Assembly (NCBI RefSeq): GCF_013315695.1
Contig: NZ_CP054353.1
Origin: Escherichia coli
GTDB taxonomy: Bacteria; Pseudomonadota; Gammaproteobacteria; Enterobacterales; Enterobacteriaceae
Strand: one strand, 5' to 3'
Length of the DNA stretch: 64,000 bases
A program made the position numbers and the translations under genes. This document shows, in pieces, positions 14,553 to 34,627 of this stretch (position 1 is the first letter of the stretch; each line of letters starts with the position of its first letter). Under the pieces are notes generated by a model. The model was not told where the DNA came from and made no database searches. It saw nothing but the letters and a program-made list of their open reading frames with translations.

Positions 14553-14803
14553 TTTGCTTCCAGAAATGATAAAAAAATAATCAAAGGCCGGGGATTATAC
14601 GCTGTATCACGCGCGGAAATGAAGTGATGTTGATGAACGGTGGCGAAATACCCTGGTGAGGTTTTTCACTGCCCGACTTGGGCAAGCACATTTAAGGCTG
14701 GCGGTATCGTGGCAACTGCCGCTACTATTTATGCCGATCAGCAACGTTCAAATCATATTGCACGACGATCGGCTATCCGAGGACACCCACAGTAAGGCAA
14801 GGT

Positions 14804-15553
14804 ATGGAACAGGTTATTACAAAGCGCCGCTATTACGATATTGGTCTACAGATTGAAGAGCTGCTGTATTCAGGCGTATTTAAGGCCGGAGAACGCTTAC
14901 CTTCAGAACGTGAACTGAGCGAGCGGTTTAATACCAGCCGAACTACCATTCGTGAAGCCATCATTATGCTGGAACTGAAAGGCGTATTGAATGTGAAGCA
15001 AGGGTCAGGGATTTTCTTTGTCGACTCCACCGATAAGCTCAGCCAGAAATCATTAATGCCCTATTCAGAAATTGGCCCGTTTGAACTGTTGCAGGCGCGT
15101 CAGGTGATTGAGAGCAATATTACTGGTTTTGCAGCCAGCCAGATTAGCTTTAACGAGTTACAAGAGTTAAAGAAAATAATTAGGTTGCAGGAAAACGCTA
15201 TCGCTGCGGAAAGTGATAAATTTGAAGACCTGGATCACCGATTTCATAGCATTATTGCCGAAGCTACGCAAAATCGGGTACTCATCAAACAAGCCGCTGA
15301 ATTATGGCGGGCGGTACGTACAGAAAACCCCCGCTGGAAGAAACTTAACTACAAGTACCTGCATGAAAAGCATTTGCGTCTGCAATGGCTGGAAGATCAC
15401 CGGGCTATTTTCCTGGCTCTGCAACAGAAAGATTCAGAGCTCGCCAGGGAAGCCTCCTGGAGACACCTGGAAAACAGCAAAAATGAATTGATCAAAATCT
15501 TCAAACAAGACGCATCCATCAGCGATTTTGATGACTTTTTCTTCGCTCGTTAA
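14804..15553 (+). CDS. GntR/FadR-family transcriptional regulator
   Basis: 249 aa; N-terminal winged HTH (LPSERELSERFNTSRTTIREAI), FCD-type C-terminal domain. Confidence 0.8.
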   Translation: MEQVITKRRYYDIGLQIEELLYSGVFKAGERLPSERELSERFNTSRTTIREAIIMLELKGVLNVKQGSGIFFVDSTDKLSQKSLMPYSEIGPFELLQARQVIESNITGFAASQISFNELQELKKIIRLQENAIAAESDKFEDLDHRFHSIIAEATQNRVLIKQAAELWRAVRTENPRWKKLNYKYLHEKHLRLQWLEDHRAIFLALQQKDSELAREASWRHLENSKNELIKIFKQDASISDFDDFFFAR

Positions 15554-15875
15554 CCTTCATTAGTCCAGAGCTGGCGGGAAAAATAACGCCGGCTCTGCCT
15601 TCCGCCCTCCACTGGTACACGCTCTCTTTTTAATTGGTCTAATAAATCGACTATCATCAGATATCTTAGATTAGCGGCAATTATCCCAAAAACTGACTTC
15701 TAAAAAACTTTCCTTTCATTTTATTCATATAACTCATTGATAAAAATATAAATAACGCCTTGTTGTTCTGTTTCGTACTTTTATCTTTCTCTGCAAGCGT
15801 GATGCATCTCTCTGTTTTTGGCCTAGTGAATTATGTAAATTGGTCTACACACAAGCCACCAGGAGTAAGAGCATA

Positions 15876-17348
15876 ATGTCAGGGAACGAAAGTATCAATG
15901 CCGCCCACTATGATCAGGTAACCACCTGGCCTCGGGACGGGTTACAGGCAGATATTGTCCATATTGGTTTTGGCGCTTTTCATCGCGGACACCAGGCGGT
16001 CTACACGGATCTCACTAATCAACTTTCGGACACCCGCTGGGGGATCTTTGAGATCAACCTGTTTGGTGATGCTCAACTGATCGAAAACTTAAATGCACAA
16101 AATGGGCTGTTTTCGGTTGTGGAAACATCTGCATCGCAATCTACCTCACGCCTTGTGCGTTCGGTGGCTGGCGGTATTCATACCCCCAGAGATGGCATTG
16201 CCGCAGCAATCCATAAACTGGCTGAACCTCAGGTAAAAATCGTTTCATTAACCATCACCGAGAAAGGTTATTGCCTCGATCCGCAAACACGTTCACTTGA
16301 TCTCACCAATGGATTAATCCAACACGATCTACAAAACCCGGATGCGCCTCTGTCAGCTATTGGCGTGATCGTCTGTGCTTTGCAACAACGTAAAGCGATA
16401 GGACTCGCCGCTTTTAGTGTGCTCTCCTGTGACAACTTGCCAGACAATGGGCATCTGACGCGCAATGCCGTTCTCGGTTTTGCCCGACAACTGGACCAGC
16501 CCCTGGCTCAGTGGATCGAAGAAAATGTCTCATTTCCAGGCACGATGGTAGATCGCATTGTTCCGGCAATGACTGAATCGCAATTCGCCTTACTGGAAAC
16601 GAAAACCGGTTATGCCGATCCCTGCGGGATCGTCTGCGAATCATTTCGTCAGTGGGTGATCGAAGATAATTTTGTGCGCGGACGACCGAAATGGGATAAA
16701 GCCGGCGCGATGTTTGTCAGCAATGTTCAGCCTTATGAAGAGATGAAGTTACGCATGTTAAATGGTAGCCATTCATTTCTGGCTTATAACGGCTCGCTGG
16801 CAGGCTATGAGTTTATCTGGCAATGCATGGAAGACGCTAATTTTCGTTCCATTACCCACCAACTGATGATTAATGAACAAGCCCGAACACTTAATCCAGA
16901 CTTAAATATCAACATCCAGGAATACGCCGACCTGTTAATTGAACGCTTTAGCAACCGTAACGTTGCACACCGTACCGGGCAAATAGCCATGGACGGTTCA
17001 CAAAAGCTTCCCCAGCGTGCACTGACGCCCTGGCTGAAATTACATCAGCAAAAGCAAAACAATGCTGTTCTGTCACTGCTCGTTGCTGGTTGGTTGCATT
17101 ATGTCATTGATGCTGTTGAGAAAAGCCAGTCTGTCGCTGATCCAATGAATGACCAATTTCAGGCGCTAATAAAGGAACAACAAGACGCATGGCAACAGGC
17201 GCTCGCATTACTGCACCTTAGCGCCATATTTGGTGATTTAAGCAACCATCAGCCATTTATAAATGAAATAAAAATCGCCTTTGCGAATATAAAAAACAAA
17301 GGCATCAAGGCCACCATCAGCCAATTATTATCGGATGAGCAGAAATGA
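15876..17348 (+). CDS. mannitol-dehydrogenase-family oxidoreductase (UxuB/fructuronate reductase-like)
   Basis: About 490 aa from the ATG preceded by AGGAGT; family-level resemblance only. Confidence 0.75.
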   Translation: MSGNESINAAHYDQVTTWPRDGLQADIVHIGFGAFHRGHQAVYTDLTNQLSDTRWGIFEINLFGDAQLIENLNAQNGLFSVVETSASQSTSRLVRSVAGGIHTPRDGIAAAIHKLAEPQVKIVSLTITEKGYCLDPQTRSLDLTNGLIQHDLQNPDAPLSAIGVIVCALQQRKAIGLAAFSVLSCDNLPDNGHLTRNAVLGFARQLDQPLAQWIEENVSFPGTMVDRIVPAMTESQFALLETKTGYADPCGIVCESFRQWVIEDNFVRGRPKWDKAGAMFVSNVQPYEEMKLRMLNGSHSFLAYNGSLAGYEFIWQCMEDANFRSITHQLMINEQARTLNPDLNINIQEYADLLIERFSNRNVAHRTGQIAMDGSQKLPQRALTPWLKLHQQKQNNAVLSLLVAGWLHYVIDAVEKSQSVADPMNDQFQALIKEQQDAWQQALALLHLSAIFGDLSNHQPFINEIKIAFANIKNKGIKATISQLLSDEQK

Positions 17349-18361
17349 AAACATTAATTTGTCAGCAGCCTGGCGTTATGGAATATGTGGAAAAGGATAT
17401 TCCCACACCAGCAGATAATGAAGTGCTGTTAAAAATCAAAGCTGTGGGTATTTGTGGTACTGATATTCACGCTTTTGCCGGCAGACAGCCTTTTTTTAGC
17501 TACCCACGTGTATTAGGTCATGAAATATGCGCCGAAGCGGTTTCGCGAGGCAGCCAGTGCCAAACAGCACAATCAGGCCAGCGCTATTCCGTCATCCCAT
17601 GCATTCCGTGTGGCGAGTGCGCAGCCTGTCGGGAAGAGAAAACGAACTGCTGCGAACGTGTTTCGCTGTATGGCGTGCATCAGGATGGGGGTTTTAGTGA
17701 GTACCTTGCGGTACGTGAAGACAACCTTGTGCCTCTCCCTGACGAGGTCAGCGACAGTGCCGGAGCATTGGTTGAATGTTTCGCCATTGGTGCACATGCC
17801 GTTCGTCGGGCAGAGATCAAGGCTGAACAAAACGTACTGGTGGTTGGCGCTGGGCCAATCGGTCTGGCTACCGCGGCCATCGCCAGGGCTAAAGGGGCGC
17901 ATGTTGTTGTTGCTGATATTGATTGTCAACGTCGCCAGCACGTTGTGGATCATCTGGCAATTAATGTCTTCGACCCAACACAGGAAGGTTTTATTGCCGC
18001 GCTTAGTGAAGTATTTGGCGGCGAACTGGCTTGCGTAGTCCTGGATGCGACGGGAAATAAAGCTTCAATGAGTCATGATGTAAATCTTATTCGTCATGGC
18101 GGCAAAATTGTTTTCATCGGTTTGTACATTGGTGAACTTGTTATTGACGATCCGACCTTCCATAAAAAAGAGACAACGTTACTCAGCAGCCGCAATGCCA
18201 CACGGGAAGATTTTGCGTTGGTGATTGAACTGATGCGCAGCAATAAAATTCACGAAAATTTAATGAAAAACCAGGCATTCAATTTCTTTAGTGTTGGCGA
18301 AGATTACCAGCGTAACGTTGTAGAAAATAAAAATATGGTCAAGGGTGTGATCACTTTTTAA
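17345..18361 (+). CDS. zinc-dependent medium-chain alcohol/polyol dehydrogenase
   Basis: 338 aa; GHE zinc motif, GAGPIGL NAD-binding motif; 4-bp ATGA overlap with the upstream gene. Confidence 0.8.
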   Translation: MKTLICQQPGVMEYVEKDIPTPADNEVLLKIKAVGICGTDIHAFAGRQPFFSYPRVLGHEICAEAVSRGSQCQTAQSGQRYSVIPCIPCGECAACREEKTNCCERVSLYGVHQDGGFSEYLAVREDNLVPLPDEVSDSAGALVECFAIGAHAVRRAEIKAEQNVLVVGAGPIGLATAAIARAKGAHVVVADIDCQRRQHVVDHLAINVFDPTQEGFIAALSEVFGGELACVVLDATGNKASMSHDVNLIRHGGKIVFIGLYIGELVIDDPTFHKKETTLLSSRNATREDFALVIELMRSNKIHENLMKNQAFNFFSVGEDYQRNVVENKNMVKGVITF

Positions 18362-18371
18362 GGGAACAAAT

Positions 18372-19382
18372 ATGACAACTGTTTATGTCAGTGAAGAAAA
18401 TTTAAAATCACTGGTGCACCACAAATTACATACCGCCGGGCTGGATACCGACACCACACAACAGGTGACAGATGTTTTAGTACATGCCGATATTACAGGT
18501 GTGCATTCACATGGTGTTATGCGTGTCGAACATTATTGCACCCGCCTTGCTGCCGGAGGGTTAAATAAAGCCCCGCAGTTTAGCATTGAGCAAATTTCAC
18601 CGTCAGTGGCCATTCTCGACTCTGACGACGGAATGGGGCATTCCGCATTAATTAGCGCCACTGAGCACGCTATTAAACTGGCCCAGCAAGAGGGCCTCGG
18701 TTTTGTTAGCGTTAAAAACACGTCTCACTGTGGTGCGTTATCTTATTTTGCAGAGATGATCACCAACAAAGGGTTGGTTGCTATCGTAATGACGCAAACC
18801 GATACCTGTGTGGCTCCCCATGGCGGCGCCGAGCGCTTTTTGGGAACTAACCCCATCGCCTTTGGTTTCCCGGTGGAAAACAGCCATCCGATGATTGTTG
18901 ATATGGCGACCAGTGCCACGGCTTTCGGCAAAATACTTCATGCAAAGGAAACCGGAAAACATATTGGTGAAGGGCTGGCGATAGATAAAAACGGTTATGG
19001 CACCACTGATCCGTATAAGATTGAAAACCTGCTACCTTTCGGCCAACACAAAGGTTCAGGCATTGCACTGGCTATTGATGCACTGACTGGCGTGCTGATG
19101 AATGCGAATTTTGGCAACCATATTGTTCGCATGTATGGTGATTATGACAAGATGCGTAAGCTGGCAAGTTTGGTTATTGCCATCGATCCGAAAAAGCTCG
19201 GCAATCCTGTTTTTGCAAAAACCATGGCGCAAATGGTCACGGAGTTGCATGCCGTTAAACCGGCTCCCGGTATCGAAAAAGTGTTAGCGCCGAACGATCC
19301 GCAAATGCACTACAAAGAAAAATGCCAACAGGAAGGTATTCCGGTTCCGGCAGGAATATTCCATTATCTGGCAGAGAATTAA
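18372..19382 (+). CDS. Ldh_2-family dehydrogenase (malate/L-lactate or diketogulonate reductase-like)
   Basis: 336 aa; family-level resemblance (YiaK/AllD-like). Confidence 0.75.
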   Translation: MTTVYVSEENLKSLVHHKLHTAGLDTDTTQQVTDVLVHADITGVHSHGVMRVEHYCTRLAAGGLNKAPQFSIEQISPSVAILDSDDGMGHSALISATEHAIKLAQQEGLGFVSVKNTSHCGALSYFAEMITNKGLVAIVMTQTDTCVAPHGGAERFLGTNPIAFGFPVENSHPMIVDMATSATAFGKILHAKETGKHIGEGLAIDKNGYGTTDPYKIENLLPFGQHKGSGIALAIDALTGVLMNANFGNHIVRMYGDYDKMRKLASLVIAIDPKKLGNPVFAKTMAQMVTELHAVKPAPGIEKVLAPNDPQMHYKEKCQQEGIPVPAGIFHYLAEN

Positions 19383-19454
19383 TCACTACTTTTTATTATA
19401 ACGATAGAAAAGCGCTGTATTTATCGTTTCTGTTATATTAACCAGGAGCAGGAT

Positions 19455-20264
19455 ATGAAAGCACTTCGTCCTCTGACGGCATCGCTTATGCTGTTAACCA
19501 GTTGTTTATTAATATCTAATACCACACTGGCAAAAATAACATTAAAACTGAGTCATAATCAGGATAAAAGCCATGCTGTCCATAAAGCATTAAGCTATTT
19601 AGCGGATAAAACCAAAGAGTATTCTAATGGTGAATTAGTTATTCGCATTTACCCAAATGCAACATTAGGTAATGAGCGTGAATCACTGGAATTAATGAAC
19701 TCCGGTGCATTACAGATGGTTAAGGTTAATGCCGCATCACTAGAATCATTTGCTCCAGATTACAGCCTTTTCAGTCTGCCGTTCTTATTCCGCGACCGTG
19801 ATCACTATTATCGTGTTCTGCAAAGTGATTTAGGTAAAAAAATACTTAATTCATCAGAAAGCAAAGGTTTTGTTGGTATTACGTACTATGACGGCGGTGC
19901 GAGAAGTTTTTATTCCAATAAACCGATTACAAAACCTGAAGATTTAGCGGGAATGAAAATCAGGGTTCAACAAAGCCCCAGCGCCATTGCAATGATGAAA
20001 GCACTCGGTGGTGTCGCTACCCCGATGGCGCAAGGCGAACTCTACACCGCACTTCAGCAAGGTGTGGTTGATGGCGGAGAGAACAATACCGTTGTCTATT
20101 CCGATATGCGTCACGCCGAAGTCGCAAAAGTCTATTCACGTGATGAACACACCATGGTACCTGATGTGTTAATTATCAGCACCGACGTGTTGAATAAACT
20201 TGGTGATAAAGAGCGCACGGCATTATTAAAAGCAGCCGGTGATGCTGCCAACTTACTGATTTAG
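19455..20264 (+). pseudogene. TRAP transporter solute-binding protein (DctP family), 3'-truncated by IS1
   Basis: Signal peptide plus DctP-like sequence for 261 codons; last 8 codons (GDAANLLI*) are encoded by the IS1 terminal repeat. Confidence 0.75.
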
Positions 20265-20292
20265 TGTATGATGGTGTTTTTGAGGTGCTCCA

Positions 20293-20568
20293 GTGGCTTC
20301 TGTTTCTATCAGCTGTCCCTCCTGTTCAGCTACTGACGGGGTGGTGCGTAACGGCAAAAGCACCGCCGGACATCAGCGCTATCTCTGCTCTCACTGCCGT
20401 AAAACATGGCAACTGCAGTTCACTTACACCGCTTCTCAACCCGGTACGCACCAGAAAATCATTGATATGGCCATGAATGGCGTTGGATGCCGGGCAACAG
20501 CCCGCATTATGGGCGTTGGCCTCAACACGATTTTACGTCACTTAAAAAACTCAGGCCGCAGTCGGTAA
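20293..20568 (+). CDS. insA: IS1 InsA
   Basis: 91 aa; zinc-finger/HTH protein typical of IS1. Confidence 0.9.
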
Positions 20569-20990
20569 CCTCGCGCATACAGCCGGGCAGTGACGTCATC
20601 GTCTGCGCGGAAATGGACGAACAGTGGGGCTATGTCGGGGCTAAATCGCGCCAGCGCTGGCTGTTTTACGCGTATGACAGGCTCCGGAAGACGGTTGTTG
20701 CGCACGTATTCGGTGAACGCACTATGGCGACGCTGGGGCGTCTTATGAGCCTGCTGTCACCCTTTGACGTGGTGATATGGATGACGGATGGCTGGCCGCT
20801 GTATGAATCCCGCCTGAAGGGAAAGCTGCACGTAATCAGCAAGCGATATACGCAGCGAATTGAGCGGCATAACCTGAATCTGAGGCAGCACCTGGCACGG
20901 CTGGGACGGAAGTCGCTGTCGTTCTCAAAATCGGTGGAGCTGCATGACAAAGTCATCGGGCATTATCTGAACATAAAACACTATCAATAA
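20487..20990 (+). CDS. insB: IS1 InsB frame (transposase made by an InsAB' frameshift)
   Basis: 167-aa ORF overlapping insA in the -1 frame. Confidence 0.9.
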
Positions 20991-21004
20991 GTTGGAGTCA
21001 TTAC

Positions 21005-21046
21005 CGATTATGTCTACAGCAAAGAGTTGTATATCAAGGCACATTG
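21005..21046 (+). pseudogene. ygiS: orphaned 3' end of ygiS (DYVYSKELYIKAH*), displaced by the IS1-bounded inversion
   Basis: First 9 bp gattatgtc are the reverse complement of gacataatc at 26938..26946, which abuts the truncated ygiS; reading on yields ten codons and a stop, restoring the expected 535-aa length. Confidence 0.6.
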
Positions 21047-21184
21047 ATGTCTTTATCGCCGTCGGAGCACGTCCGGCGGCGCTATTCACGCTGATCTCCT
21101 GTGACTCGACGCGGCAGATAATGTAGTATCTCCGGCAATATTGCCCCTTTGAAGGCTGGCGAATAAGTTGAGGAATCAGAATTA

Positions 21185-23443
21185 ATGAGCGATATGGCAG
21201 AGCGCCTTGCGCTACATGAATTTACGGAAAACGCCTACTTAAACTACTCCATGTACGTGATCATGGACCGTGCGTTGCCGTTTATTGGTGATGGTCTGAA
21301 ACCCGTTCAGCGGCGCATTGTGTATGCGATGTCTGAACTGGGTCTGAATGCCAGTGCCAAATTTAAAAAATCGGCCCGTACCGTCGGTGACGTACTGGGT
21401 AAATACCATCCGCACGGCGATAGTGCCTGTTATGAAGCGATGGTCCTGATGGCGCAGCCGTTCTCTTACCGTTATCCGCTGGTTGATGGTCAGGGGAACT
21501 GGGGCGCGCCGGACGATCCGAAATCGTTCGCGGCAATGCGTTACACCGAATCCCGGTTATCGAAATATTCTGAGTTGCTATTAAGCGAGCTTGGACAGGG
21601 GACGGCTGACTGGGTGCCAAACTTCGACGGCACCTTACAGGAGCCGAAAATGCTGCCAGCCCGCCTGCCGAACATTTTGCTTAACGGCACCACCGGTATT
21701 GCCGTCGGCATGGCGACCGATATTCCACCGCATAACCTGCGTGAAGTGGCTCAGGCGGCAATCGCATTAATCGACCAGCCGAAAACCACGCTCGATCAGC
21801 TGCTGGATATCGTGCAGGGGCCGGATTATCCGACTGAAGCGGAAATTATCACTTCGCGCGCCGAGATTCGTAAAATCTACGAGAACGGACGTGGTTCAGT
21901 GCGTATGCGCGCGGTTTGGAAGAAAGAAGATGGCGCGGTGGTTATTAGCGCATTGCCGCATCAGGTTTCAGGTGCGCGCGTACTGGAGCAAATTGCTGCG
22001 CAAATGCGCAACAAAAAGCTGCCGATGGTTGACGATCTGCGCGATGAATCTGACCACGAGAACCCGACCCGTCTGGTGATTGTGCCGCGTTCCAACCGCG
22101 TGGATATGGATCAGGTGATGAACCACCTCTTTGCTACCACCGATCTGGAAAAGAGCTATCGCATTAACCTCAATATGATCGGTCTGGATGGTCGTCCGGC
22201 GGTGAAAAACCTGCTGGAAATCCTCTCCGAATGGCTGGTGTTCCGCCGCGATACCGTGCGCCGCCGACTGAATTATCGTCTGGAGAAAGTCCTCAAGCGC
22301 CTGCATATCCTCGAAGGTTTGCTGGTGGCGTTTCTCAATATCGACGAAGTGATTGAGATCATTCGTAATGAAGATGAACCGAAACCGGCGCTGATGTCGC
22401 GGTTTGGCCTTACTGAAACCCAGGCGGAAGCGATCCTCGAACTGAAACTGCGTCATCTTGCCAAACTGGAAGAGATGAAGATTCGCGGTGAGCAGAGTGA
22501 GCTGGAAAAAGAGCGCGACCAGTTGCAGGGCATTTTGGCTTCCGAGCGTAAAATGAATAACCTGCTGAAGAAAGAACTGCAGGCAGACGCGCAAGCCTAC
22601 GGTGACGAACGTCGTTCGCCGTTGCAGGAACGCGAAGAAGCGAAAGCGATGAGCGAGCACGACATGCTGCCGTCTGAACCTGTCACCATTGTGCTGTCGC
22701 AGATGGGCTGGGTACGCAGCGCTAAAGGCCATGATATCGACGCGCCGGGCCTGAATTATAAAGCGGGCGATAGCTTCAAAGCGGCGGTGAAAGGTAAGAG
22801 CAACCAACCGGTAGTGTTTGTTGATTCCACCGGTCGTAGCTATGCCATCGACCCGATTACGCTGCCGTCGGCGCGTGGTCAGGGCGAACCGCTCACCGGC
22901 AAATTAACGTTGCCGCCTGGAGCGACCGTTGACCATATGCTGATGGAAAGCGACGATCAGAAACTGCTGATGGCTTCCGATGCGGGTTACGGTTTCGTCT
23001 GCACCTTTAACGATTTGGTGGCGCGTAACCGTGCAGGTAAGGCTTTGATCACCTTACCGGAAAATGCCCATGTTATGCCGCCGGTGGTGATTGAAGATGC
23101 TTCCGATATGCTGCTGGCAATCACTCAGGCAGGCCGTATGTTGATGTTCCCGGTAAGCGATCTGCCGCAGCTGTCGAAGGGCAAAGGCAACAAGATTATC
23201 AACATTCCATCGGCAGAAGCCGCGCGTGGAGAAGATGGTCTGGCGCAACTGTACGTTCTGCCGCCGCAAAGCACGCTGACCATTCATGTTGGGAAACGCA
23301 AAATTAAACTGCGTCCGGAAGAGCTACAGAAAGTCACTGGCGAACGTGGACGCCGCGGTACGTTGATGCGCGGTTTGCAGCGTATCGATCGTGTTGAGAT
23401 CGACTCTCCTCGCCGTGCCAGCAGCGGTGATAGCGAAGAGTAA
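21185..23443 (+). CDS. parC: DNA topoisomerase IV subunit A
   Basis: 752 aa; GyrA/ParC family. Confidence 0.95.
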
Positions 23444-23676
23444 TATGCCGGGGAGGGCGCTGTTTCCTCCCGCTTGCAAGGAACGCCGGATGAAACGTTA
23501 AGTCGTCATCCGGCAGCGTATTCTACCCCCGGAAACGATAAAAATTCCCTTGAAACCGTTGTTTATTCATGCGTTGCGATTAACAATACGCTTTTCCAGA
23601 GAGCGGCTTTTAACAATGCCCTAACCTGATTTCAGGTGACGTACAATGCCAGTCTCTCAGACCTTCAGAGGGTGTT

Positions 23677-24414
23677 ATGCTATATATCTTTCGTCTTATT
23701 ATTACCGTGATTTACAGCATCTTAGTCTGTGTATTCGGCTCCATTTACTGCCTTTTCAGCCCGCGTAACCCGAAACATGTGGCCACCTTTGGGCATATGT
23801 TTGGTCGTCTTGCACCGCTGTTCGGCCTGAAAGTTGAGTGCCGCAAACCTGCGGATGCTGAAAGCTACGGCAATGCTATCTATATCGCTAACCACCAGAA
23901 CAACTATGACATGGTCACAGCATCGAACATTGTGCAACCGCCGACGGTGACGGTAGGTAAAAAGAGCTTGCTGTGGATCCCCTTCTTCGGGCAGTTGTAC
24001 TGGTTAACCGGCAACTTATTGATCGACAGAAACAATCGCACTAAAGCTCACGGCACTATTGCGGAAGTCGTGAATCACTTCAAAAAACGCCGTATTTCCA
24101 TCTGGATGTTCCCGGAAGGAACCCGCAGCCGTGGTCGCGGCCTGCTGCCGTTCAAGACCGGGGCATTTCACGCGGCAATTGCGGCGGGCGTCCCGATTAT
24201 TCCCGTGTGCGTCTCTACAACTTCGAATAAGATTAATCTTAATCGACTGCACAACGGTCTGGTGATTGTCGAAATGCTGCCGCCAATTGACGTCAGTCAG
24301 TATGGCAAAGATCAGGTTCGTGAGCTGGCTGCCCATTGTCGTTCGATAATGGAACAAAAAATCGCCGAGCTCGATAAAGAAGTCGCAGAGCGCGAAGCCG
24401 CCGGAAAAGTTTAA
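23677..24414 (+). CDS. plsC: 1-acyl-sn-glycerol-3-phosphate acyltransferase
   Basis: 245 aa; HX4D acyltransferase motif (NHQNNYD). Confidence 0.9.
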   Translation: MLYIFRLIITVIYSILVCVFGSIYCLFSPRNPKHVATFGHMFGRLAPLFGLKVECRKPADAESYGNAIYIANHQNNYDMVTASNIVQPPTVTVGKKSLLWIPFFGQLYWLTGNLLIDRNNRTKAHGTIAEVVNHFKKRRISIWMFPEGTRSRGRGLLPFKTGAFHAAIAAGVPIIPVCVSTTSNKINLNRLHNGLVIVEMLPPIDVSQYGKDQVRELAAHCRSIMEQKIAELDKEVAEREAAGKV

Positions 24415-24488
24415 GTCGGCAATCTGTATTTTTGCGGGGAACACTTTCCTGCACGGTATTACTTTAGCCAGTTTTACATGGAGCAAAT

Positions 24489-25901
24489 ATGTCACTCAGT
24501 CGGCGTCAGTTCATTCAGGCATCGGGGATTGCACTTTGTGCAGGCGCTGTTCCCCTGAAGGCCAGCGCAGCCGGGCAACAGCAACCGCTACCCGTTCCGC
24601 CGCTGCTTGAATCTCGCCGTGGGCAACCGCTGTTTATGACTGTACAACGTGCGCACTGGTCATTTACGCCAGGGACACGCGCGTCGGTTTGGGGAATCAA
24701 TGGTCGTTACCTGGGGCCGACTATCCGCGTCTGGAAGGGCGACGATGTTAAGCTTATTTACAGCAACCGCCTGACAGAAAATGTCTCAATGACGGTGGCC
24801 GGGCTACAGGTACCAGGCCCGCTGATGGGCGGTCCGGCACGGATGATGTCGCCAAACGCTGACTGGGCACCCGTACTGCCCATTCGCCAGAACGCAGCTA
24901 CTCTGTGGTATCACGCCAATACTCCCAACCGCACGGCTCAGCAGGTCTATAACGGCCTTGCCGGAATGTGGCTGGTGGAAGATGAAGTCAGCAAGTCGCT
25001 GCCTATCCCCAACCATTATGGTGTGGATGATTTTCCGGTCATTATCCAGGATAAACGGCTGGATAACTTTGGTACGCCAGAATACAACGAACCGGGAAGC
25101 GGCGGCTTTGTTGGTGATACGCTGCTGGTTAACGGTGTGCAAAGCCCGTACGTTGAAGTCTCGCGTGGCTGGGTGCGCTTGCGACTGCTGAACGCGTCGA
25201 ACTCTCGTCGCTATCAACTACAGATGAGCGATGGTCGCCCGTTACATGTGATTTCTGGCGATCAGGGATTCCTGCCTGCTCCTGTATCGGTGAAGCAACT
25301 TTCGCTGGCACCGGGCGAGCGCCGCGAGATTCTGGTGGATATGAGCAACGGTGATGAAGTGTCGATCACCTGTGGTGAAGCGGCGAGCATTGTTGATCGT
25401 ATTCGCGGCTTCTTTGAGCCATCCAGTATTCTGGTGTCTACGCTGGTGCTAACGCTGCGCCCAACCGGCCTTCTGCCGCTGGTCACAGACAGTCTTCCGA
25501 TGCGCTTGCTGCCAACTGAAATCATGGCCGGTTCGCCGATTCGTAGTCGCGATATCAGTCTGGGTGATGACCCGGGTATTAATGGACAACTGTGGGACGT
25601 CAACCGTATTGATGTCACCGCGCAGCAAGGAACGTGGGAACGCTGGACGGTACGCGCGGACGAGCCGCAAGCGTTCCATATTGAAGGCGTGATGTTCCAG
25701 ATCCGTAACGTGAATGGCGCGATGCCGTTCCCGGAAGACAGAGGCTGGAAAGATACCGTTTGGGTTGACGGACAAGTGGAGCTGCTGGTTTATTTCGGTC
25801 AGCCTTCCTGGGCGCACTTCCCGTTCTACTTCAACAGTCAGACGCTGGAAATGGCGGACCGTGGCTCGATTGGGCAACTGTTGGTCAATCCGGTACCGTA
25901 A
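24489..25901 (+). CDS. ftsP: cell-division multicopper-oxidase-like protein (SufI)
   Basis: 470 aa; Tat signal peptide (SRRQFI). Confidence 0.9.
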   Translation: MSLSRRQFIQASGIALCAGAVPLKASAAGQQQPLPVPPLLESRRGQPLFMTVQRAHWSFTPGTRASVWGINGRYLGPTIRVWKGDDVKLIYSNRLTENVSMTVAGLQVPGPLMGGPARMMSPNADWAPVLPIRQNAATLWYHANTPNRTAQQVYNGLAGMWLVEDEVSKSLPIPNHYGVDDFPVIIQDKRLDNFGTPEYNEPGSGGFVGDTLLVNGVQSPYVEVSRGWVRLRLLNASNSRRYQLQMSDGRPLHVISGDQGFLPAPVSVKQLSLAPGERREILVDMSNGDEVSITCGEAASIVDRIRGFFEPSSILVSTLVLTLRPTGLLPLVTDSLPMRLLPTEIMAGSPIRSRDISLGDDPGINGQLWDVNRIDVTAQQGTWERWTVRADEPQAFHIEGVMFQIRNVNGAMPFPEDRGWKDTVWVDGQVELLVYFGQPSWAHFPFYFNSQTLEMADRGSIGQLLVNPVP

Positions 25902-25911
25902 TGGACCAATT

Positions 25912-25940
25912 CAATGCCCCACAGAGTGGTGGGGCATTGA
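25912..25940. terminator. hairpin after ftsP, possibly bidirectional with the dctM remnant
   Basis: Perfect stem aatgcccca...tggggcatt. Confidence 0.4.
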
Positions 25941-25971
25941 AAATTACTCAGTATGCAGTCTTCACTGTGTA

Positions 25972-26170
25972 TCAGGTCGAAAATAATCCTGGCAGCATCA
26001 GACTAAGCTGCGGGAAATAACAAATAATTGCCATTACTACAAACAATGCCAGAAACATCGGCAGTAATGGTTTTATTGCCCTGTCGATACTGACCTTACC
26101 AATGCTGCACCCCACAAACAGAATGGTGCCGACAGGTGGTGTGCAAAGGCCAATGGTTAAGTTGAAAACG
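25972..26170 (-). pseudogene. C-terminal remnant of a TRAP transporter large permease (DctM-like), cut by IS1
   Basis: Minus-strand translation from the IS1 junction: VFNLTIGLCTPPVGTILFVGCSIGKVSIDRAIKPLLPMFLALFVVMAIICYFPQLSLMLPGLFST*; no start codon. Confidence 0.6.
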
Positions 26171-26184
26171 GTAATGACTCCAAC

Positions 26185-26688
26185 TTATTGATAGTGTTTT
26201 ATGTTCAGATAATGCCCGATGACTTTGTCATGCAGCTCCACCGATTTTGAGAACGACAGCGACTTCCGTCCCAGCCGTGCCAGGTGCTGCCTCAGATTCA
26301 GGTTATGCCGCTCAATTCGCTGCGTATATCGCTTGCTGATTACGTGCAGCTTTCCCTTCAGGCGGGATTCATACAGCGGCCAGCCATCCGTCATCCATAT
26401 CACCACGTCAAAGGGTGACAGCAGGCTCATAAGACGCCCCAGCGTCGCCATAGTGCGTTCACCGAATACGTGCGCAACAACCGTCTTCCGGAGCCTGTCA
26501 TACGCGTAAAACAGCCAGCGCTGGCGCGATTTAGCCCCGACATAGCCCCACTGTTCGTCCATTTCCGCGCAGACGATGACGTCACTGCCCGGCTGTATGC
26601 GCGAGGTTACCGACTGCGGCCTGAGTTTTTTAAGTGACGTAAAATCGTGTTGAGGCCAACGCCCATAATGCGGGCTGTTGCCCGGCAT
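26185..26688 (-). CDS. insB: IS1 InsB frame
   Basis: Protein identical to the copy-1 InsB. Confidence 0.9.
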
Positions 26689-26882
26689 CCAACGCCATTC
26701 ATGGCCATATCAATGATTTTCTGGTGCGTACCGGGTTGAGAAGCGGTGTAAGTGAACTGCAGTTGCCATGTTTTACGGCAGTGAGAGCAGAGATAGCGCT
26801 GATGTCCGGCGGTGCTTTTGCCGTTACGCACCACCCCGTCAGTAGCTGAACAGGAGGGACAGCTGATAGAAACAGAAGCCAC
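26607..26882 (-). CDS. insA: IS1 InsA
   Basis: Protein identical to the copy-1 InsA. Confidence 0.9.
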
Positions 26883-26910
26883 TGGAGCACCTCAAAAACA
26901 CCATCATACA

Positions 26911-28512
26911 CTAAATCAGTAAGTTGGCAGCATCACCGACATAATCCTGGGGATTATGCAGCGGAAAACCGCCAACGTAGGGTTTAAGCAGTTTGATTAA
27001 CGGCTGATAATAGACAGGAATGAGCGGTGCCTGCTGGTTGATGATCACTTCTGCCTGCTGATACAACGCATTACGCTTTGTTGCATCAGCCGTTTGTGCC
27101 GCCTGGTTTAGTAAGGCGTCATACTGCGCGTTTTTCCAGTGGCCGACATTTTCCTCGCTATCGCTCTTAAGCGTGTTCAGAAAGGTGGAGGCATCATTGT
27201 ACGTCGCATCCCACGACTGCCGAGACAACATGAAATCACCGGCTCGTCGGGCATCAAGATAAGTTTTCCACTCCATTGTGCGCAGCGTCACCTGTGCACC
27301 CAGCCATTTTTTCCATTCGGAAGACAACGCTATCGCGGTCTTTTCATGCAGATCGTACTTGTTGTAGAACAGCTCAAAGCGAAGCGGATGAGAGGCGTCG
27401 TATCCCGCCTGTTTCAACAAGGCTTTTGCCATCGCGACGCGCTCACTCAGCGGCTTTTGCAGTTCATCGAACGTCGTCGCGCTAAAGCCTTTTACCTCTG
27501 GCGGCGTCAGCGTAGTTGCGGGCGTTCTCAACCCCAGTACCTTTTGCGCAATAAGCTGTCGATCAACCGTAAGATATAGCGCCCGACGCACCCGCACATC
27601 GTTAAATGGCGGTTTCTCAAGGTTGAAGTTGTAATATTCGCTGTTCAGACGCGGAATAATTCGTAGCTCGCCAGGCAGTGATTTTTCAATGGCGGGAATT
27701 TGCTGCGCCGGAACCCAGGTGAGATCGACCTCTCCCGCGCGATAGCGGTTATAGCCGGTGACCGAATTATCCAGCGCCAGATACTCAACCTGTTGCAATA
27801 CTGTATGTTGCGCATCGCGGTACTTTGGATTTTTGCGTGCAGTAATCTTTTCGTTAACTACCCACTGATCAAGCACAAAGGCACCGTTGTAAACCATGTT
27901 CTCTGGCTTACTCCAGCTATCGCCATGTTTAGCGATGACATGATGAGGAACCGGGAACAGCGTCGGCCAGGCGAGCATCGTCGTGAACCAAGGAACTGGC
28001 TGCTCAAGCGTAACTTCAAGAGTACGATCATCCATCGCTTTGACACCCAGCGATGTAACATCTGCTTTACCCGCAACAATAGCCGCGGCATTGTTAATGT
28101 GCGCCTGTGCCAGATAGCCAGCAAAAGGGCTTGCCGTTTTCGGGTCAACCGCACGTTGCCAGCCGAGGACAAAATCCTCTGCTGTCAGAGGCTGACCGTC
28201 TGACCACTGCAAACCGCTACGCAGATGGAAAATATAGCGCTTGCCGCCGTCCAGTATCTCCCAGCGTTCAGCCTGAGCGGGCTGCACCTGGCCTTCACCG
28301 TCCATCCATACCAGACCTTCAAACAGATCCAGCACAATCTGCGCGGCAGTATTCTCCTCTACCTTTTGCGGGTCGAGCGTGCCTGGGTCGCTATGATTGT
28401 TGTAACGAAAAACTTGTTGCGGGGCGAGCGGTGTGTTGGCGGGAACGTCAGCAGCGTAGAGAGGAGCCGCACTTACCAGGCTGACCAGCCATAATAAATT
28501 TCGCGTATACAT
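26911..28512 (-). CDS. ygiS: periplasmic oligopeptide-type ABC substrate-binding protein with an IS1-encoded C-terminal tail
   Basis: 533 aa; signal peptide; SBP family 5; last 8 aa GDAANLLI come from the IS1 end (native part 26938..28512). Confidence 0.75.
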   Translation of the reverse strand: MYTRNLLWLVSLVSAAPLYAADVPANTPLAPQQVFRYNNHSDPGTLDPQKVEENTAAQIVLDLFEGLVWMDGEGQVQPAQAERWEILDGGKRYIFHLRSGLQWSDGQPLTAEDFVLGWQRAVDPKTASPFAGYLAQAHINNAAAIVAGKADVTSLGVKAMDDRTLEVTLEQPVPWFTTMLAWPTLFPVPHHVIAKHGDSWSKPENMVYNGAFVLDQWVVNEKITARKNPKYRDAQHTVLQQVEYLALDNSVTGYNRYRAGEVDLTWVPAQQIPAIEKSLPGELRIIPRLNSEYYNFNLEKPPFNDVRVRRALYLTVDRQLIAQKVLGLRTPATTLTPPEVKGFSATTFDELQKPLSERVAMAKALLKQAGYDASHPLRFELFYNKYDLHEKTAIALSSEWKKWLGAQVTLRTMEWKTYLDARRAGDFMLSRQSWDATYNDASTFLNTLKSDSEENVGHWKNAQYDALLNQAAQTADATKRNALYQQAEVIINQQAPLIPVYYQPLIKLLKPYVGGFPLHNPQDYVGDAANLLI

Positions 28513-28620
28513 GGTATTCCTTACCGGAGAAATTATAAGCCCGACAACAATACGCCTGTGGCATTGTTAGCTCAAACTTATCGCGAGTGATTTGGCTCAC
28601 ACTCCGGTAAAGATTCCCCA

Positions 28621-29103
28621 TCACGCTAACGGTACATAAACATCCGTTTCCAGTCGCTGCTCTGTCATCCCTTCGGCAAGATTGGTGTAGTGAAACAGGA
28701 TCGGGGCTTTGCGCATTTTTTCGCCGCTTGCCGGAAGCCAGTGGCGAATGATGCCCCATATCGTGTGTGAAATATCGTCCAGCTCGCCAACATGGCGGGC
28801 CACAGCATAACGTCCACCGGTAAGTTCACCATTACTTACGCCATAACGATTATCGGGGATCGGTTCGCTAACGCTGCCGCAGATATCAAAGCGAAACGCT
28901 TCTGGTGCGGTGGTGGCAGGGTCGTCCCAGGCGACGCCAAAAGTCTGGCTTTGGTTAACAGGAGAAAGCCCCGTCTCTTTACGCCACATGATAAATTTCG
29001 CCACGCTGTAGTTGAGCAACTCAGGGCTACAGCGGTGCGGCAACATCGCCACAGGGATTGAGGGGAAATCGATAATATTTACATCCAGTGTCAGGTTTGT
29101 CAT
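28621..29103 (-). CDS. ygiV: GyrI-like small-molecule-binding transcription factor
   Basis: 160 aa. Confidence 0.7.
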   Translation of the reverse strand: MTNLTLDVNIIDFPSIPVAMLPHRCSPELLNYSVAKFIMWRKETGLSPVNQSQTFGVAWDDPATTAPEAFRFDICGSVSEPIPDNRYGVSNGELTGGRYAVARHVGELDDISHTIWGIIRHWLPASGEKMRKAPILFHYTNLAEGMTEQRLETDVYVPLA

Positions 29104-29155
29104 TTTGCCTCCCTGCGAAATTATTCCCGGGAACGCGTCCCGGGAGCGGTAACAA

Positions 29156-29548
29156 TTACGGATTTACTTTGCGGATCTGTTTGACGTCAATTTCAACAGA
29201 GTTCCAGTCTTTATCGACTTCACCCTGAATCTCAACCGTATCTTTCGGCGTCACCGTCACGCCGTTCCAGCGTTTGTGATCGATATCCACATTGATAGTA
29301 CCGCTGGCATCTTTGAACACGTAGAGATCGTCAGAGATGCGTTCAACGATATTGCCGCGCAGGGTTACCCAGGTGTCGTCACGCAGGGATTTTGCGCTTT
29401 CTACGGTCGTTACGCTGCCGTTCGGCCCCTGGAATCCTCCGGCCTGACTTTGCGTTGCCGATGGGCCAGAAAAACCTCCCTGCTCTGCTGCCATAACCGG
29501 TGCACTGCACAGGGCCATTACTGCGATTACTGCTGCGAATTTTTTCAT
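29156..29548 (-). CDS. ygiW: BOF/YgiW-family periplasmic OB-fold protein
   Basis: 130 aa from MKKFAAVIAV...; signal peptide; GGGAG RBS. Confidence 0.75.
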   Translation of the reverse strand: MKKFAAVIAVMALCSAPVMAAEQGGFSGPSATQSQAGGFQGPNGSVTTVESAKSLRDDTWVTLRGNIVERISDDLYVFKDASGTINVDIDHKRWNGVTVTPKDTVEIQGEVDKDWNSVEIDVKQIRKVNP

Positions 29549-29699
29549 GTTTATTACTCCCTTTAATGTCTGTTTCCGAGCATTTAACAAGATAGTCCTT
29601 AACAACTTCTTAAGGGAAAAAAATAAAATTTAATGCTGTACAGAGCGCGTTACAACACGGTTTACTGGCAGCAAATACGGTTATCGCAGGGATGAAAAA

Positions 29700-30359
29700 A
29701 TGCGAATTTTACTGATAGAAGATGACATGCTGATTGGCGACGGCATCAAAACGGGCCTTAGTAAAATGGGTTTTAGCGTCGACTGGTTTACACAAGGTCG
29801 TCAGGGAAAAGAGGCGCTATATAGCGCACCTTATGATGCGGTGATCCTGGATTTAACCTTACCGGGCATGGATGGTCGCGATATTTTGCGCGAATGGCGA
29901 GAAAAAGGTCAGCGTGAGCCGGTTTTGATCCTGACCGCGCGCGATGCGCTGGCGGAACGTGTAGAAGGGCTGCGTCTGGGAGCTGACGATTATCTGTGTA
30001 AACCTTTTGCGTTGATAGAAGTCGCCGCCAGGCTGGAAGCTCTGATGCGCCGAACCAACGGCCAGGCCAGCAACGAGCTGCGCCACGGCAACGTCATGCT
30101 CGACCCCGGCAAACGTATCGCCACGCTGGCTGGCGAACCCTTAACGCTGAAGCCAAAAGAATTTGCCCTGCTGGAATTACTGATGCGTAACGCTGGTCGG
30201 GTACTGCCGCGCAAACTGATTGAAGAGAAACTGTATACCTGGGACGAAGAGGTCACCAGTAATGCCGTTGAAGTGCATGTGCATCATCTGCGACGCAAAC
30301 TCGGCAGTGATTTTATTCGTACCGTTCATGGTATTGGCTACACATTAGGTGAGAAATGA
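29700..30359 (+). CDS. qseB: OmpR-family response regulator
   Basis: 219 aa; receiver plus winged-helix domains. Confidence 0.9.
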
Positions 30360-31705
30360 AATTTACCCAACGTCTTAGTCTGCGAGTCAGGCTAACGCTA
30401 ATCTTTTTAATTCTGGCCTCGGTGACCTGGCTGCTTTCCAGCTTTGTCGCCTGGAAACAAACAACGGATAACGTCGATGAGTTGTTCGACACCCAACTGA
30501 TGCTGTTTGCCAAACGGTTAAGTACGCTCGATCTCAACGAAATCAACGCGGCGGATCGCATGGCACAGACGCCAAATAAATTAAAACACGGTCATGTTGA
30601 TGACGATGCGCTGACCTTTGCCATCTTTACCCACGACGGCAGAATGGTCCTTAACGATGGCGATAATGGAGAAGATATTCCTTATAGCTATCAACGAGAA
30701 GGTTTTGCTGACGGGCAACTGGTGGGCGATAAAGATCAATGGCGTTTTGTCTGGATGACCTCACCTGATGGCAAATATCGCATTGTTGTTGGTCAGGAAT
30801 GGGAATACCGTGAAGACATGGCGCTGGCGATTGTTGCCGGACAATTGATCCCGTGGCTGGTCGCACTGCCGATTATGTTAATCATCATGATGGTACTACT
30901 GGGTCGTGAACTCGCGCCGCTGAACAAACTGGCGCTGGCACTACGTATGCGTGACCCAGACTCGGAAAAACCACTAAACGCGACGGGCGTACCCAGCGAA
31001 GTGCGCCCACTGGTTGAGTCGTTGAATCAACTGTTCGCCCGCACACATGCGATGATGGTTCGTGAACGACGCTTTACCTCCGACGCAGCTCACGAACTTC
31101 GTAGCCCGTTAACGGCGCTGAAAGTGCAAACCGAAGTTGCTCAGCTCTCTGACGATGATCCGCAGGCGCGGAAAAAAGCGCTGCTCCAATTACATTCCGG
31201 GATCGATCGCGCTACTCGTCTGGTTGATCAACTGCTCACGCTATCGCGGCTGGACTCACTGGATAACCTTCAGGACGTCGCGGAGATCCCGCTTGAAGAT
31301 CTCCTGCAATCGTCGGTGATGGATATTTACCACACGGCGCAGCAGGCGAAAATTGACGTGCGACTGACACTCAATGCCCACGGCATCAAACGTACCGGAC
31401 AACCGCTGTTGCTAAGTTTGTTGGTACGAAACCTTCTGGATAACGCCGTGCGCTACAGTCCACAGGGCTGCGTGGTGGACGTCACGCTGAATGCCGATAA
31501 TTTCATCGTGAGGGATAACGGCCCCGGTGTGACGCCAGAGGCACTGGCGAGAATTGGCGAACGCTTCTATCGCCCACCCGGACAAACCGCTACCGGCAGT
31601 GGACTTGGGCTATCGATTGTCCAGCGAATCGCCAAGCTGCATGACATGAATGTTGAATTTGGGAATGCGGAACAAGGTGGATTTGAGGCGAAGGTAAGCT
31701 GGTAA
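30356..31705 (+). CDS. qseC: sensor histidine kinase
   Basis: 449 aa; H-box (AAHELRSPL); 4-bp overlap with qseB. Confidence 0.9.
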
Positions 31706-31814
31706 GGGTAAGACTTTTGCTAAATTCGCAAAAGACTTTGCACATTTTGCTAATTTCACCGTACCGCTCTGTGACGTACTATAGTCGGCAAACGTCTCAC
31801 CTTGAGGTTAAAAA

Positions 31815-32396
31815 ATGAGCAACATCCTGATTATCAACGGCGCGAAAAAATTCGCCCACTCCAATGGTCAACTGAACGACACCCTGACCGAAGTCGCGGA
31901 TGGCACACTGCGCGACCTCGGGCATGATGTCCGCATCGTTCGCGCCGACAGCGACTACGATGTCAAAGCGGAAGTACAAAACTTTCTCTGGGCTGATGTG
32001 GTGATCTGGCAGATGCCAGGCTGGTGGATGGGCGCGCCGTGGACAGTGAAAAAATACATTGATGATGTATTCACCGAAGGTCACGGGACGCTGTATGCCA
32101 GCGATGGTCGTACCCGCAAAGATCCGTCGAAAAAATACGGCTCCGGCGGCCTGGTACAGGGCAAAAAATATATGCTTTCTCTGACCTGGAACGCACCAAT
32201 GGAAGCCTTCACCGAAAAAGATCAGTTCTTCCACGGCGTTGGTGTTGACGGTGTGTACCTGCCGTTCCATAAAGCAAACCAATTCCTTGGCATGGAACCG
32301 CTGCCGACATTTATCGCTAATGACGTGATAAAAATGCCTGATGTTCCCCGCTATACTGAAGAATATCGCAAGCATCTTGTGGAAATTTTTGGTTAA
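31815..32396 (+). CDS. mdaB: NADPH:quinone oxidoreductase
   Basis: 193 aa flavodoxin-like. Confidence 0.9.
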   Translation: MSNILIINGAKKFAHSNGQLNDTLTEVADGTLRDLGHDVRIVRADSDYDVKAEVQNFLWADVVIWQMPGWWMGAPWTVKKYIDDVFTEGHGTLYASDGRTRKDPSKKYGSGGLVQGKKYMLSLTWNAPMEAFTEKDQFFHGVGVDGVYLPFHKANQFLGMEPLPTFIANDVIKMPDVPRYTEEYRKHLVEIFG

Positions 32397-32426
32397 CTAG
32401 AGCTCTGGCTTTAGAAGGAGTTAACC

Positions 32427-34617: not shown

Positions 34618-34627
34618 ATAACTCCCG

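Follow-up and report, generated by a model that had tools for sequence, protein, structure and literature searches.

An IS1-disrupted dctPQM transporter operon next to an inverted ftsP-plsC-parC block in Escherichia coli

We analyzed a 64,000-nucleotide stretch of an Escherichia coli chromosome (the window), which is collinear with the genome of isolate AF3 and differs from it by 7 SNPs in 50 kb. On the plus strand it carries intact genes for a FadR/GntR regulator (14804-15553), a mannitol-dehydrogenase-family enzyme (15876-17348), a Zn-dependent alcohol dehydrogenase (17345-18361), and an Ldh_2-family oxidoreductase (18372-19382), all four with the same coordinates in the collinear AF3 RefSeq record. 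Downstream lies dctP′ (19455-20237, plus strand), which comprises the first 261 of the 327 codons of a gene for a TRAP substrate-binding protein. As the initial annotation had claimed, this gene is cut after codon 261 by the left end of an IS1 element. The first 27 nt of the IS1 copy supply eight further codons (GDAANLLI) and a stop codon, resulting in an open reading frame (19455-20264) for a fusion protein of 269 amino acids. This protein scored 230 bits against the NCBIfam model NF037995 (TRAP_S1/DctP; E value of 2.5e-68, cut-off 50) and dctP′ 219 bits against TIGR00787 (cut-off 175), and PF03480 is recorded for the fusion protein. A full-length DctP is absent, as only residues 1-261 of 327 are left and the profile was covered from position 1 to 235 of 271, compared to 1 to 267 for the intact protein. 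With the closest solved homologue, the alignment extends as far as residue 312, so that the truncated protein lacks part of the fold.

The second remnant of the transporter, ′dctM (25972-26169, minus strand), abuts the IRR of a second IS1 copy and consists of the last 65 codons of a 434-codon gene plus the stop codon, 66 codons in all. Its translation, VFNLTIGLCTPPVGTILFVGCSIGKVSIDRAIKPLLPMFLALFVVMAIICYFPQLSLMLPGLFST followed by the stop, includes the TPPVG motif. The tail reported earlier at this place was thus correctly recognized, except that its end had been set at 26170, one base too far, since this position is the first base of IS1. The remnant matched positions 346-405 of 405 of the DctM model TIGR00786 (E value of 8.7e-18), which supports its assignment to a TRAP large permease. 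A complete DctM is absent: the tail reached 64 bits against a TIGR00786 cut-off of 268, 369 of the 434 codons are deleted, and a search of the window by tblastn revealed no second dctM. ′dctM has neither a start codon nor a promoter of its own, and it is the only one of the gene remnants that RefSeq/PGAP flags as a pseudogene (missing N-terminus).

The two IS1 copies, copy 1 at 20238-21005 (plus strand, IS1A type, IRL on the left) and copy 2 at 26170-26937 (minus strand), are inverted relative to each other and are exact reverse complements (768 of 768 positions). Both have the termini GGTGATGCTGCCAAC...GTTGGAGTCATTACC, contain the InsA and InsB reading frames, and are labeled by PGAP as "IS1A family transposase, programmed frameshift". 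With a length of 768 bp, terminal inverted repeats, the insA/insB′ frameshift, and a target duplication of 9 bp, which is the usual length for IS1, they show the features of the IS1 family. The duplicated target, GACATAATC, corresponds to codons D-Y-V of ygiS and is split in inverted orientation, with one copy at each IS1: GATTATGTC at 21006-21014, read from the sequence, and its reverse complement GACATAATC at 26938-26946. Copy 1 is accordingly flanked by AAAGCAGCC and GATTATGTC, and copy 2 by GTTGAAAAC and GACATAATC. The flanks at the IRR of copy 1 (GATTATGTC) and at the IRL of copy 2 (GACATAATC), which form the new junctions, are mutual reverse complements. The flanks at the old junctions, IRL-dctP′ and IRR-′dctM, are unrelated to each other and were separated by 1,842 bp in the ancestor.

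Between the IS1 copies lies a block of 5,164 bp (21006-26169) with parC (21185-23443), plsC (23677-24414), ftsP (24489-25901), and the dctM tail. parC, plsC, and ftsP are intact, and their present orientation runs counter to the local leading-strand direction and GC skew; the GC skew of the block is +0.05, compared to -0.006 and -0.045 in its flanks. The block begins with the detached 3′ end of ygiS (21006-21047, plus strand; DYVYSKELYIKAH and the stop), which adjoins copy 1 and is located 138 nt upstream of parC. The remainder of ygiS, an ABC substrate-binding protein gene, is found beyond copy 2 (ygiS′, 26911-28512, minus strand); its last 10 codons (YSKELYIKAH) have been swapped for 8 IS1-encoded codons (GDAANLLI), so that it encodes 533 instead of 535 amino acids. 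It is annotated as an ordinary CDS (WP_001571929.1).

The near-isogenic isolate AF10 (record L006; 99.93 to 99.97% identity over 27 kb) served as the intact reference. In AF10 the order dctP (327 amino acids)-dctQ (160)-dctM (434)-ftsP-plsC-parC-ygiS is unbroken, and together with AR_0077 this isolate defines the ancestral order as GntR regulator, mannitol dehydrogenase, Zn-dependent alcohol dehydrogenase, Ldh_2, dctP, dctQ, dctM, ftsP, plsC, parC, ygiS, the last four on the minus strand. The ancestral site of the operon is located between ygiQ and ftsP. Of 5,426 complete E. coli genomes, about 1,208 possess dctPQM in intact form. Both stubs share 99 to 100% DNA identity with the corresponding parts of the intact operon, which argues against a chance match. 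The window aligns to AF10 in three collinear pieces, the middle one of which (21006-26169) is reverse-complemented and matches L006 14600-9437 with 99.94% identity. The two outer pieces overlap by the 9 bp of the target site, which is present as a single copy in AF10 (L006 14592-14600). Comparison with AR_0077 gave the same picture. These alignments directly show the structure, where it breaks, which bases are missing, and that the target duplication is inverted.

The alignment of dctP′ stops at base 7594 of L006 (codon 261), and ′dctM encodes exactly residues 370-434 of the AF10 protein (L006 9437-9634). The AF10 segment without a counterpart in the window is exactly 1,842 bp long (L006 7595-9436) and comprises the last 66 codons and the stop codon of dctP, a 41-nt spacer, dctQ (483 nt), a 10-nt spacer, and the first 369 codons of dctM. 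This gap bears out the earlier proposal that the 3′ end of dctP, all of dctQ, and most of dctM had been lost. In agreement with the position of dctQ wholly inside the deleted segment, a tblastn search of the whole window with the AF10 DctQ protein gave no hit at an E value of ≤1e-3; the window thus holds no intact dctQM contiguous with dctP. When the inversion is undone in silico, the stubs line up as dctP′-IS1-′dctM, as had been predicted, and no target duplication surrounds this IS1. Its flanks, AAAGCAGCC and, un-inverted, GTTTTCAAC, correspond to L006 7594 and 9437. A single IS1 whose flanks are unduplicated and, in AF10, separated by 1,842 bp fits the IS1-associated adjacent deletion suggested in the initial annotation.

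The window retains only 80% of dctP and 15% of dctM, and dctQ is gone. With no membrane component left and a binding protein lacking its C-terminal fifth, uptake through this system is expected to be abolished. The view that the uptake arm of the neighboring catabolic module is dead therefore appears sound on the basis of gene content, which points to a nonfunctional TRAP transporter. A relocated copy of the deleted segment was not found at ≥99% identity in the two complete genomes sharing the arrangement (see below), absence being judged from the reconciliation of genome counts (1,209 versus 1,208). The substrate might also be taken up by a paralogous TRAP system or by ExuT encoded at another locus. 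This substrate is probably a hexuronate-type sugar acid, as judged by similarity: the closest solved binding proteins are 4ovr and 4x8r, which are glucuronate bound, and 4n8y, which is galacturonate bound. For the three enzymes of the module, the nearest NCBIfam models were fructuronate reductase, the Zn-dependent oxidoreductase PRK10083, and an AllD-like ureidoglycolate dehydrogenase, all with scores below the curated cut-offs. The accessions of the proteins encoded upstream are identical to those of AF10, and the decay is therefore recent and partial, with the rest of the module intact and protein-identical to that of intact strains.

The identical structure was found in two RefSeq complete genomes, MSB1_4I from Australia and AF3 from the UK, and in 22 of the 24 long contigs encoding the dctP′ fusion protein that were read, which excludes a one-off assembly error. 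The other two contigs, L008 and L009, contain further IS1-bounded rearrangements. The assembly collection has the 269-amino-acid fusion protein in 1,171 of its blocks. Conceivably, the 5.2-kb block was nevertheless assembled in the wrong orientation, or the population is mixed, the true arrangement being dctP′-IS1-′dctM ... parC-IS1-ygiS′, because inverted repeats of 768 bp exceed short reads and each flank joins the same IS1 end either way. As independent complete assemblies from different countries and the 22 contigs all show the inverted form, we consider this highly unlikely. The deletion and both stubs are moreover independent of the orientation, and the operon would be equally dead. A literature search for a ygiS/IS1/parC rearrangement or for the strain names yielded nothing specific. 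The literature offered just an indirect hint of a resemblance between the related strain NMBU-W13E19 and ST69 isolates.

Could the stubs be functional, with dctP′ encoding an orphan periplasmic binding protein or with the IS1 upstream of parC having been selected for parC expression? dctP′ retains its start codon, a signal-peptide-like N-terminus, and the upstream operon context, the exact fusion is widespread, and the arrangement was unreverted in every contig read. All of this must be set against a binding protein lacking 66 of 327 residues, the missing permease genes, and the 179 nt upstream of parC, which are unchanged, only the sequence beyond being different. In a simple promoter and terminator scan of positions 19300-27100, the counts did not exceed the expectation from shuffled sequences. 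Clonal descent explains the wide occurrence. Functional stubs are extremely improbable.

How could this arrangement have arisen? Replicative intramolecular transposition in cis results in a deletion without target duplication, whereas the trans route gives an inversion with a new, inverted IS copy and an inverted target duplication, one per IS (He et al. 2015, PMC4471558). Both outcomes are on record for IS26 and Tn4401 as well as for the IS1 family (PMC4471558; for IS1, Turlan and Chandler 1995, cited in PMC12428005). IS1 transposes replicatively within the chromosome (PMC12428005). The window shows the features of the trans route given in PMC4471558, namely, an inverted IS pair around a flipped segment and an inverted duplication at the new junctions. 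It is highly probable that IS1 activity alone wrecked an accessory dctPQM operon here, and a course of three events is proposed. In the first, an IS1 would have inserted into the dct operon. A transposition in cis would have removed adjoining DNA, a net loss of 1,842 bp, giving dctP′-IS1-′dctM without target duplication. A transposition in trans would have struck the 9-bp target in the 3′ end of ygiS, thereby creating the second, inverted IS1, flipping the 5.2-kb ftsP-plsC-parC block, splitting the duplication, and clipping 10 ygiS codons. The last two events may have occurred in either order, and the original IS1 could have sat at either end of the 1,842-bp gap. This pathway is reconstructed from its product, and the three-event history is the most economical one. 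The deletion could instead stem from recombination between two direct IS1 copies. A single trans event starting from an IS1 first located in ygiS was rejected: such an event deletes nothing and would have left the inverted duplication at the junctions with dct, which is incompatible with unrelated dct-side flanks 1,842 bp apart.

The inversion itself may be a product of transposition rather than of later recombination, as the trans route and an insertion followed by recombination yield exactly the same final sequence. In the latter case four steps would be required: insertion of IS1 into dct, adjacent deletion, a separate insertion of IS1 in opposite orientation into ygiS, and RecA recombination flipping the block. 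With the block turned back, the IS1 on the ygiS side has a direct copy of GACATAATC at either end, as after a simple insertion. With about 40 or more IS1 places in these genomes, independent insertions should be frequent, and the further rearrangements of L008 and L009 within the lineage point in the same direction. Yet this history needs one event more than the trans route, and its intermediate, IS1 at this ygiS site with the block unflipped, was found in none of the 5,426 complete genomes and 24 long contigs. Reversible recombination would also allow flipped-back isolates, and none was seen among the contigs read. These missing intermediates are negative evidence from a limited sample. The 100% identity of the two copies is expected of a replicative copy and is not decisive. 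Taken together, the four-step history is a possible but less probable alternative. The un-inverted dctP′-IS1-′dctM form was likewise not detected, as none of the 5,426 complete E. coli genomes covered at least 80% of a synthetic 1,968-bp query. A search for parC-IS1-ygiS′ without inversion gave hits in two strains alone, LHM10-1 and CP52E; these contain a different IS1-family element, which lies upstream of ygiS, beside mqsA, rather than at the site described here. The matches H58-H64, considered as possible intermediates, are independent IS1 events at other positions.

parC and plsC are essential genes. The inversion might be nonneutral, with IS1 placed 179 bp upstream of parC and parC, plsC, and ftsP head-on to replication, and might have been selected and have contributed to the spread of a clinical E. 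coli sublineage; we regard this as very unlikely. If the inversion was selected, possibly together with the loss of uronate-type uptake, this would explain the fixed, never-reverted arrangement in the long contigs read. The case is one of ordinary gene decay by insertion sequences, and its practical value is modest, with no new biological question opened. A single chromosomal locus displays both intramolecular outcomes of IS1, deletion and inversion, with a near-isogenic "before" genome at hand. The sequences of the dctP′-IS1 (269 amino acids) and ygiS′-IS1 fusions provide exact markers for a clinical sublineage of E. coli. Truncated dctP′ and chimeric ygiS′ are listed by RefSeq as ordinary proteins, which is an annotation flaw, and metabolic models of these strains should not count the TRAP system as functional.

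Compared to the intramolecular transposition events described for IS26, Tn4401, and IS1, the locus shows the same signatures and nothing that differs in kind; here the events are chromosomal and flip a block containing parC and plsC. With the IS-driven pseudogenes of IS-rich E. coli and Shigella it shares the loss of accessory functions and IS-bounded rearrangements in sister isolates, whereas here the rest of the catabolic module is still intact. The transporter differs from YiaMNO of K-12, scoring 288 bits against the NCBIfam YiaN model with a cut-off of 800. Like DctPQM-type TRAP transporters, the intact relatives of the locus possess, in P-Q-M order, a DctP-family binding protein, a small DctQ-type permease, and a DctM large permease, of which the window keeps only stubs of the first and the last.

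In the isolate AF10 (NZ_OZ546911.1), which is nearly isogenic with the window, the TRAP transporter operon is intact and the gene order is that of AR_0077. There, ygiQ (minus strand) is followed by genes for a FadR/GntR regulator, a mannitol-dehydrogenase-family protein, a Zn-dependent alcohol dehydrogenase, and an Ldh-family oxidoreductase, then by those for the TRAP binding protein (327 aa), the small permease (160 aa), and the large permease (434 aa), and finally by ftsP, plsC, parC, and ygiS, all on the minus strand. Alignment of the window with the AF10 stretch L006 gave three pieces of 27 kb in total with 99.93 to 99.97% identity: window positions 12644-20237 and 26938-41537 match L006 1-7594 and 14592-29191 in the same orientation, and 21006-26169 matches L006 14600-9437 in reverse. 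No window counterpart exists for the 1,842 bp of L006 7595-9436. This stretch holds the end of dctP (66 codons and the stop) and, after a spacer of 41 nt, the 483 nt of dctQ; a second spacer of 10 nt separates dctQ from 369 codons of dctM. When the intact DctP, DctQ, and DctM proteins were compared with the whole window by tblastn, two stubs and nothing else were found, and there was thus no intact dctQM elsewhere in the window. These results bear out the initial annotation, according to which the 3′ end of dctP, all of dctQ, and most of dctM had been lost. DNA from the Ldh_2 gene to dctP' was matched over most of its length in about 1,209 of 5,426 complete E. coli genomes. The 1,842-bp segment is present with at least 99% identity in 12 complete genomes, which are the lineage set with a 100% flank match minus two genomes sharing the arrangement of the window. 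The totals of 1,209 genomes for the flank and 1,208 for the deleted DNA are consistent with complete absence of the segment from those two.

The only long repeat in the window is a 773-nt inverted pair (20237-21009 and 26166-26938) formed by two IS1 elements of 768 bp, copy 1 at 20238-21005 (plus strand, with IRL, the left end, first) and copy 2 at 26170-26937 (minus strand), the exact reverse complement of copy 1. Starting at 19455, the dctP' reading frame runs for 261 codons to 20237 and then for 8 codons and a stop inside the left end of IS1, giving a 269-aa fusion (19455-20264, plus strand) in which …LLKAA of DctP is joined to GDAANLLI before the stop. On the minus strand, 'dctM (26169-25972) is translated as VFNLTIGLCTPPVGTILFVG…LPGLFST followed by a stop, i.e., 65 codons plus stop. 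In NCBIfam, the dctP' frame was placed in the TRAP binding-protein family DctP, with scores of 230 and 219 bits that both exceed the cut-off, and the 'dctM tail corresponds to the final 60 positions in the model for the DctM large permease (NCBIfam, E 8.7e-18), a match to a TRAP large permease having been set beforehand as the test for this translation. The IS1 ends, the dctP' frame, and the 'dctM translation agree with the coordinates and codon counts first proposed, except that the dctM tail, whose codon count stands, does not extend to 26170, since this base belongs to IS1. Where ftsP and 'dctM converge, the spacer between their ends contains a perfect 11-bp inverted repeat, CAATGCCCCAC ... 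GTGGGGCATTG, at 25912-25939, probably a terminator hairpin common to both genes; it is not followed by a T-run and was not called by a simple terminator scan.

Copy 1 is flanked by AAAGCAGCC on the left and GATTATGTC on the right, and copy 2 by GTTGAAAAC and GACATAATC, respectively. Each right flank is the reverse complement of the other, and both correspond to a single 9-bp site in AF10 (L006 14592-14600), which codes for D-Y-V of ygiS 10 codons before the stop; therefore, ygiS was also damaged. The dct-side flanks have nothing in common and are separated by 1,842 bp in the ancestral locus. In ygiS' (26911-28512, minus strand) 8 residues encoded by IS1 stand in place of the last 10 (YSKELYIKAH), and the resulting tail, GDAANLLI plus stop, is identical to that of dctP'. 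The detached 13-codon 3′ end of ygiS (21006-21047, plus strand) adjoins IS1 copy 1 upstream of parC. Thus, ygiS is the third gene hit by the same events. It is directly followed by ygiV (28512-28621), and the toxin-antitoxin pair mqsR-mqsA, which is located between ygiS and ygiV in LHM10-1 and in K-12, is absent from the window lineage. An accessory iron-uptake cluster is present between ygiN and parE (32786-39978), with genes for a MurR/RpiR regulator, a siderophore ABC binding protein, two FecCD permeases, an ATPase, and a TonB-dependent receptor.

In intramolecular replicative transposition, the cis reaction deletes DNA adjoining the IS and leaves no target duplication; the trans reaction inverts the DNA between IS and target, placing it between the old IS copy and a new, inverted one, with the target duplication in inverted orientation and one copy per IS (He et al., PMC4471558). 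IS1 moves replicatively in the E. coli chromosome (PMC12428005), and replicative deletions by IS1 were described by Turlan & Chandler 1995, as cited in PMC12428005. The window carries both the cis and the trans signature, and the "new" trans junctions are IRR of copy 1 and IRL of copy 2, fitting the requirement of the model. The two signatures point to a minimal history in which an IS1 would have inserted in the dct operon, followed, in either order, by a cis deletion next to it and a trans inversion into the ygiS target. We favor this one-step trans route to the inversion with some reservation, because the same final sequence would result from a separate IS1 insertion in ygiS and subsequent RecA recombination between the inverted copies. 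That route is a possible but less probable one, as it takes one event more and its intermediates were looked for but not found: un-inverted dctP'-IS1-'dctM did not occur among the 5,426 complete E. coli genomes searched, in other genomes, the IS1-family elements close to ygiS were located upstream of the gene only, and none of 24 long contigs examined for the dctP' fusion protein was un-inverted. A history starting with IS1 in ygiS, followed by a trans jump into the dct operon, was rejected, as it would place an inverted duplication at the junctions with dct DNA and leave the operon without a deletion, neither of which matches.

The flipped block (21006-26169) has a GC skew of +0.05, and its flanks have values of -0.006 and -0.045. 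On the K-12 map, parC is on the leading strand of the left replichore. Therefore, parC, plsC, and ftsP are now oriented against the local strand bias and probably collide head-on with replication. Upstream of parC, 179 nt have stayed the same between the window and L006.

Two RefSeq complete genomes of isolates from different continents have an identical structure: MSB1_4I came from a rectal swab in Australia and AF3 from a blood culture in the UK. AF3 is collinear with the window; its feature coordinates are identical, and the two differ by 7 SNPs in 50 kb. In a large public assembly collection, 1,171 blocks list exactly this 269-aa fusion protein, which can therefore serve as a lineage marker. 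The window-type layout was observed in 22 of the 24 long contigs. With short reads, a segment that lies between inverted 768-bp repeats cannot be oriented; neither the deletion nor the stubs depend on how the block is oriented. In RefSeq, the 'dctM stub is flagged as a pseudogene and dctP' and ygiS' are listed as normal proteins, the dctP'-IS1 fusion as "TRAP transporter substrate-binding protein" (WP_001571926.1 in MSB1_4I, WP_510002277.1 in AF3).

Judged from its gene content, the TRAP system of the window would be unable to transport, because dctQ, 85% of dctM, and a fifth of dctP are gone. The four genes upstream of dctP' are intact and their protein accessions are the same as in AF10, which argues for a recent decay limited to the uptake arm of the catabolic module, as had been suggested before. 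Among solved structures, those closest to the intact binding protein are 4ovr, 4x8r, and 4n8y (E 1e-68 to 1e-60), of which 4x8r is glucuronate-binding and 4n8y galacturonate-binding (PMC11668362). For the adjacent mannitol-dehydrogenase-family enzyme, the nearest NCBIfam model was fructuronate reductase, with 508 bits and thus below the cut-off of 603. Based on these ligands and this neighbor, a hexuronate-type substrate is a reasonable lead, not a result. Overall, the observation in the initial annotation was confirmed and its interpretation supported, and detail was added on the mechanism and on ygiS.

The same island was affected by independent IS1 events in other genomes. Eco-15 carries IS1 within dctP near codon 69, CUVET20-PYO4 carries it in the dctM-ftsP spacer, and in several ST131-type genomes, such as strain 5392, an IS1-bounded deletion from exbB to the Zn-dependent alcohol dehydrogenase gene removed metC through the mannitol-dehydrogenase gene. 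Further IS1-bounded rearrangements are found in two sister isolates from the same lineage as the window: in L008 (GCA_900448625.1, UGAA01000001.1; 10001-20810) type III secretion (ETT2-like) genes, and not parC, come after the dctP'-IS1 junction, and in L009 (GCA_046047015.1, CP164765.1; 16730-20810) an mtlR-containing region takes the place of ygiS' after the second IS1.

No published account of this particular rearrangement was found in a literature search. It is a textbook IS1 product on an ordinary DctPQM-type TRAP operon and nothing new in kind. The intact locus of AR_0077 and AF10 has the same P-Q-M make-up as such operons, whereas the window keeps the two stubs alone, and its junctions show the published cis and trans signatures of intramolecular replicative transposition (He et al., PMC4471558).
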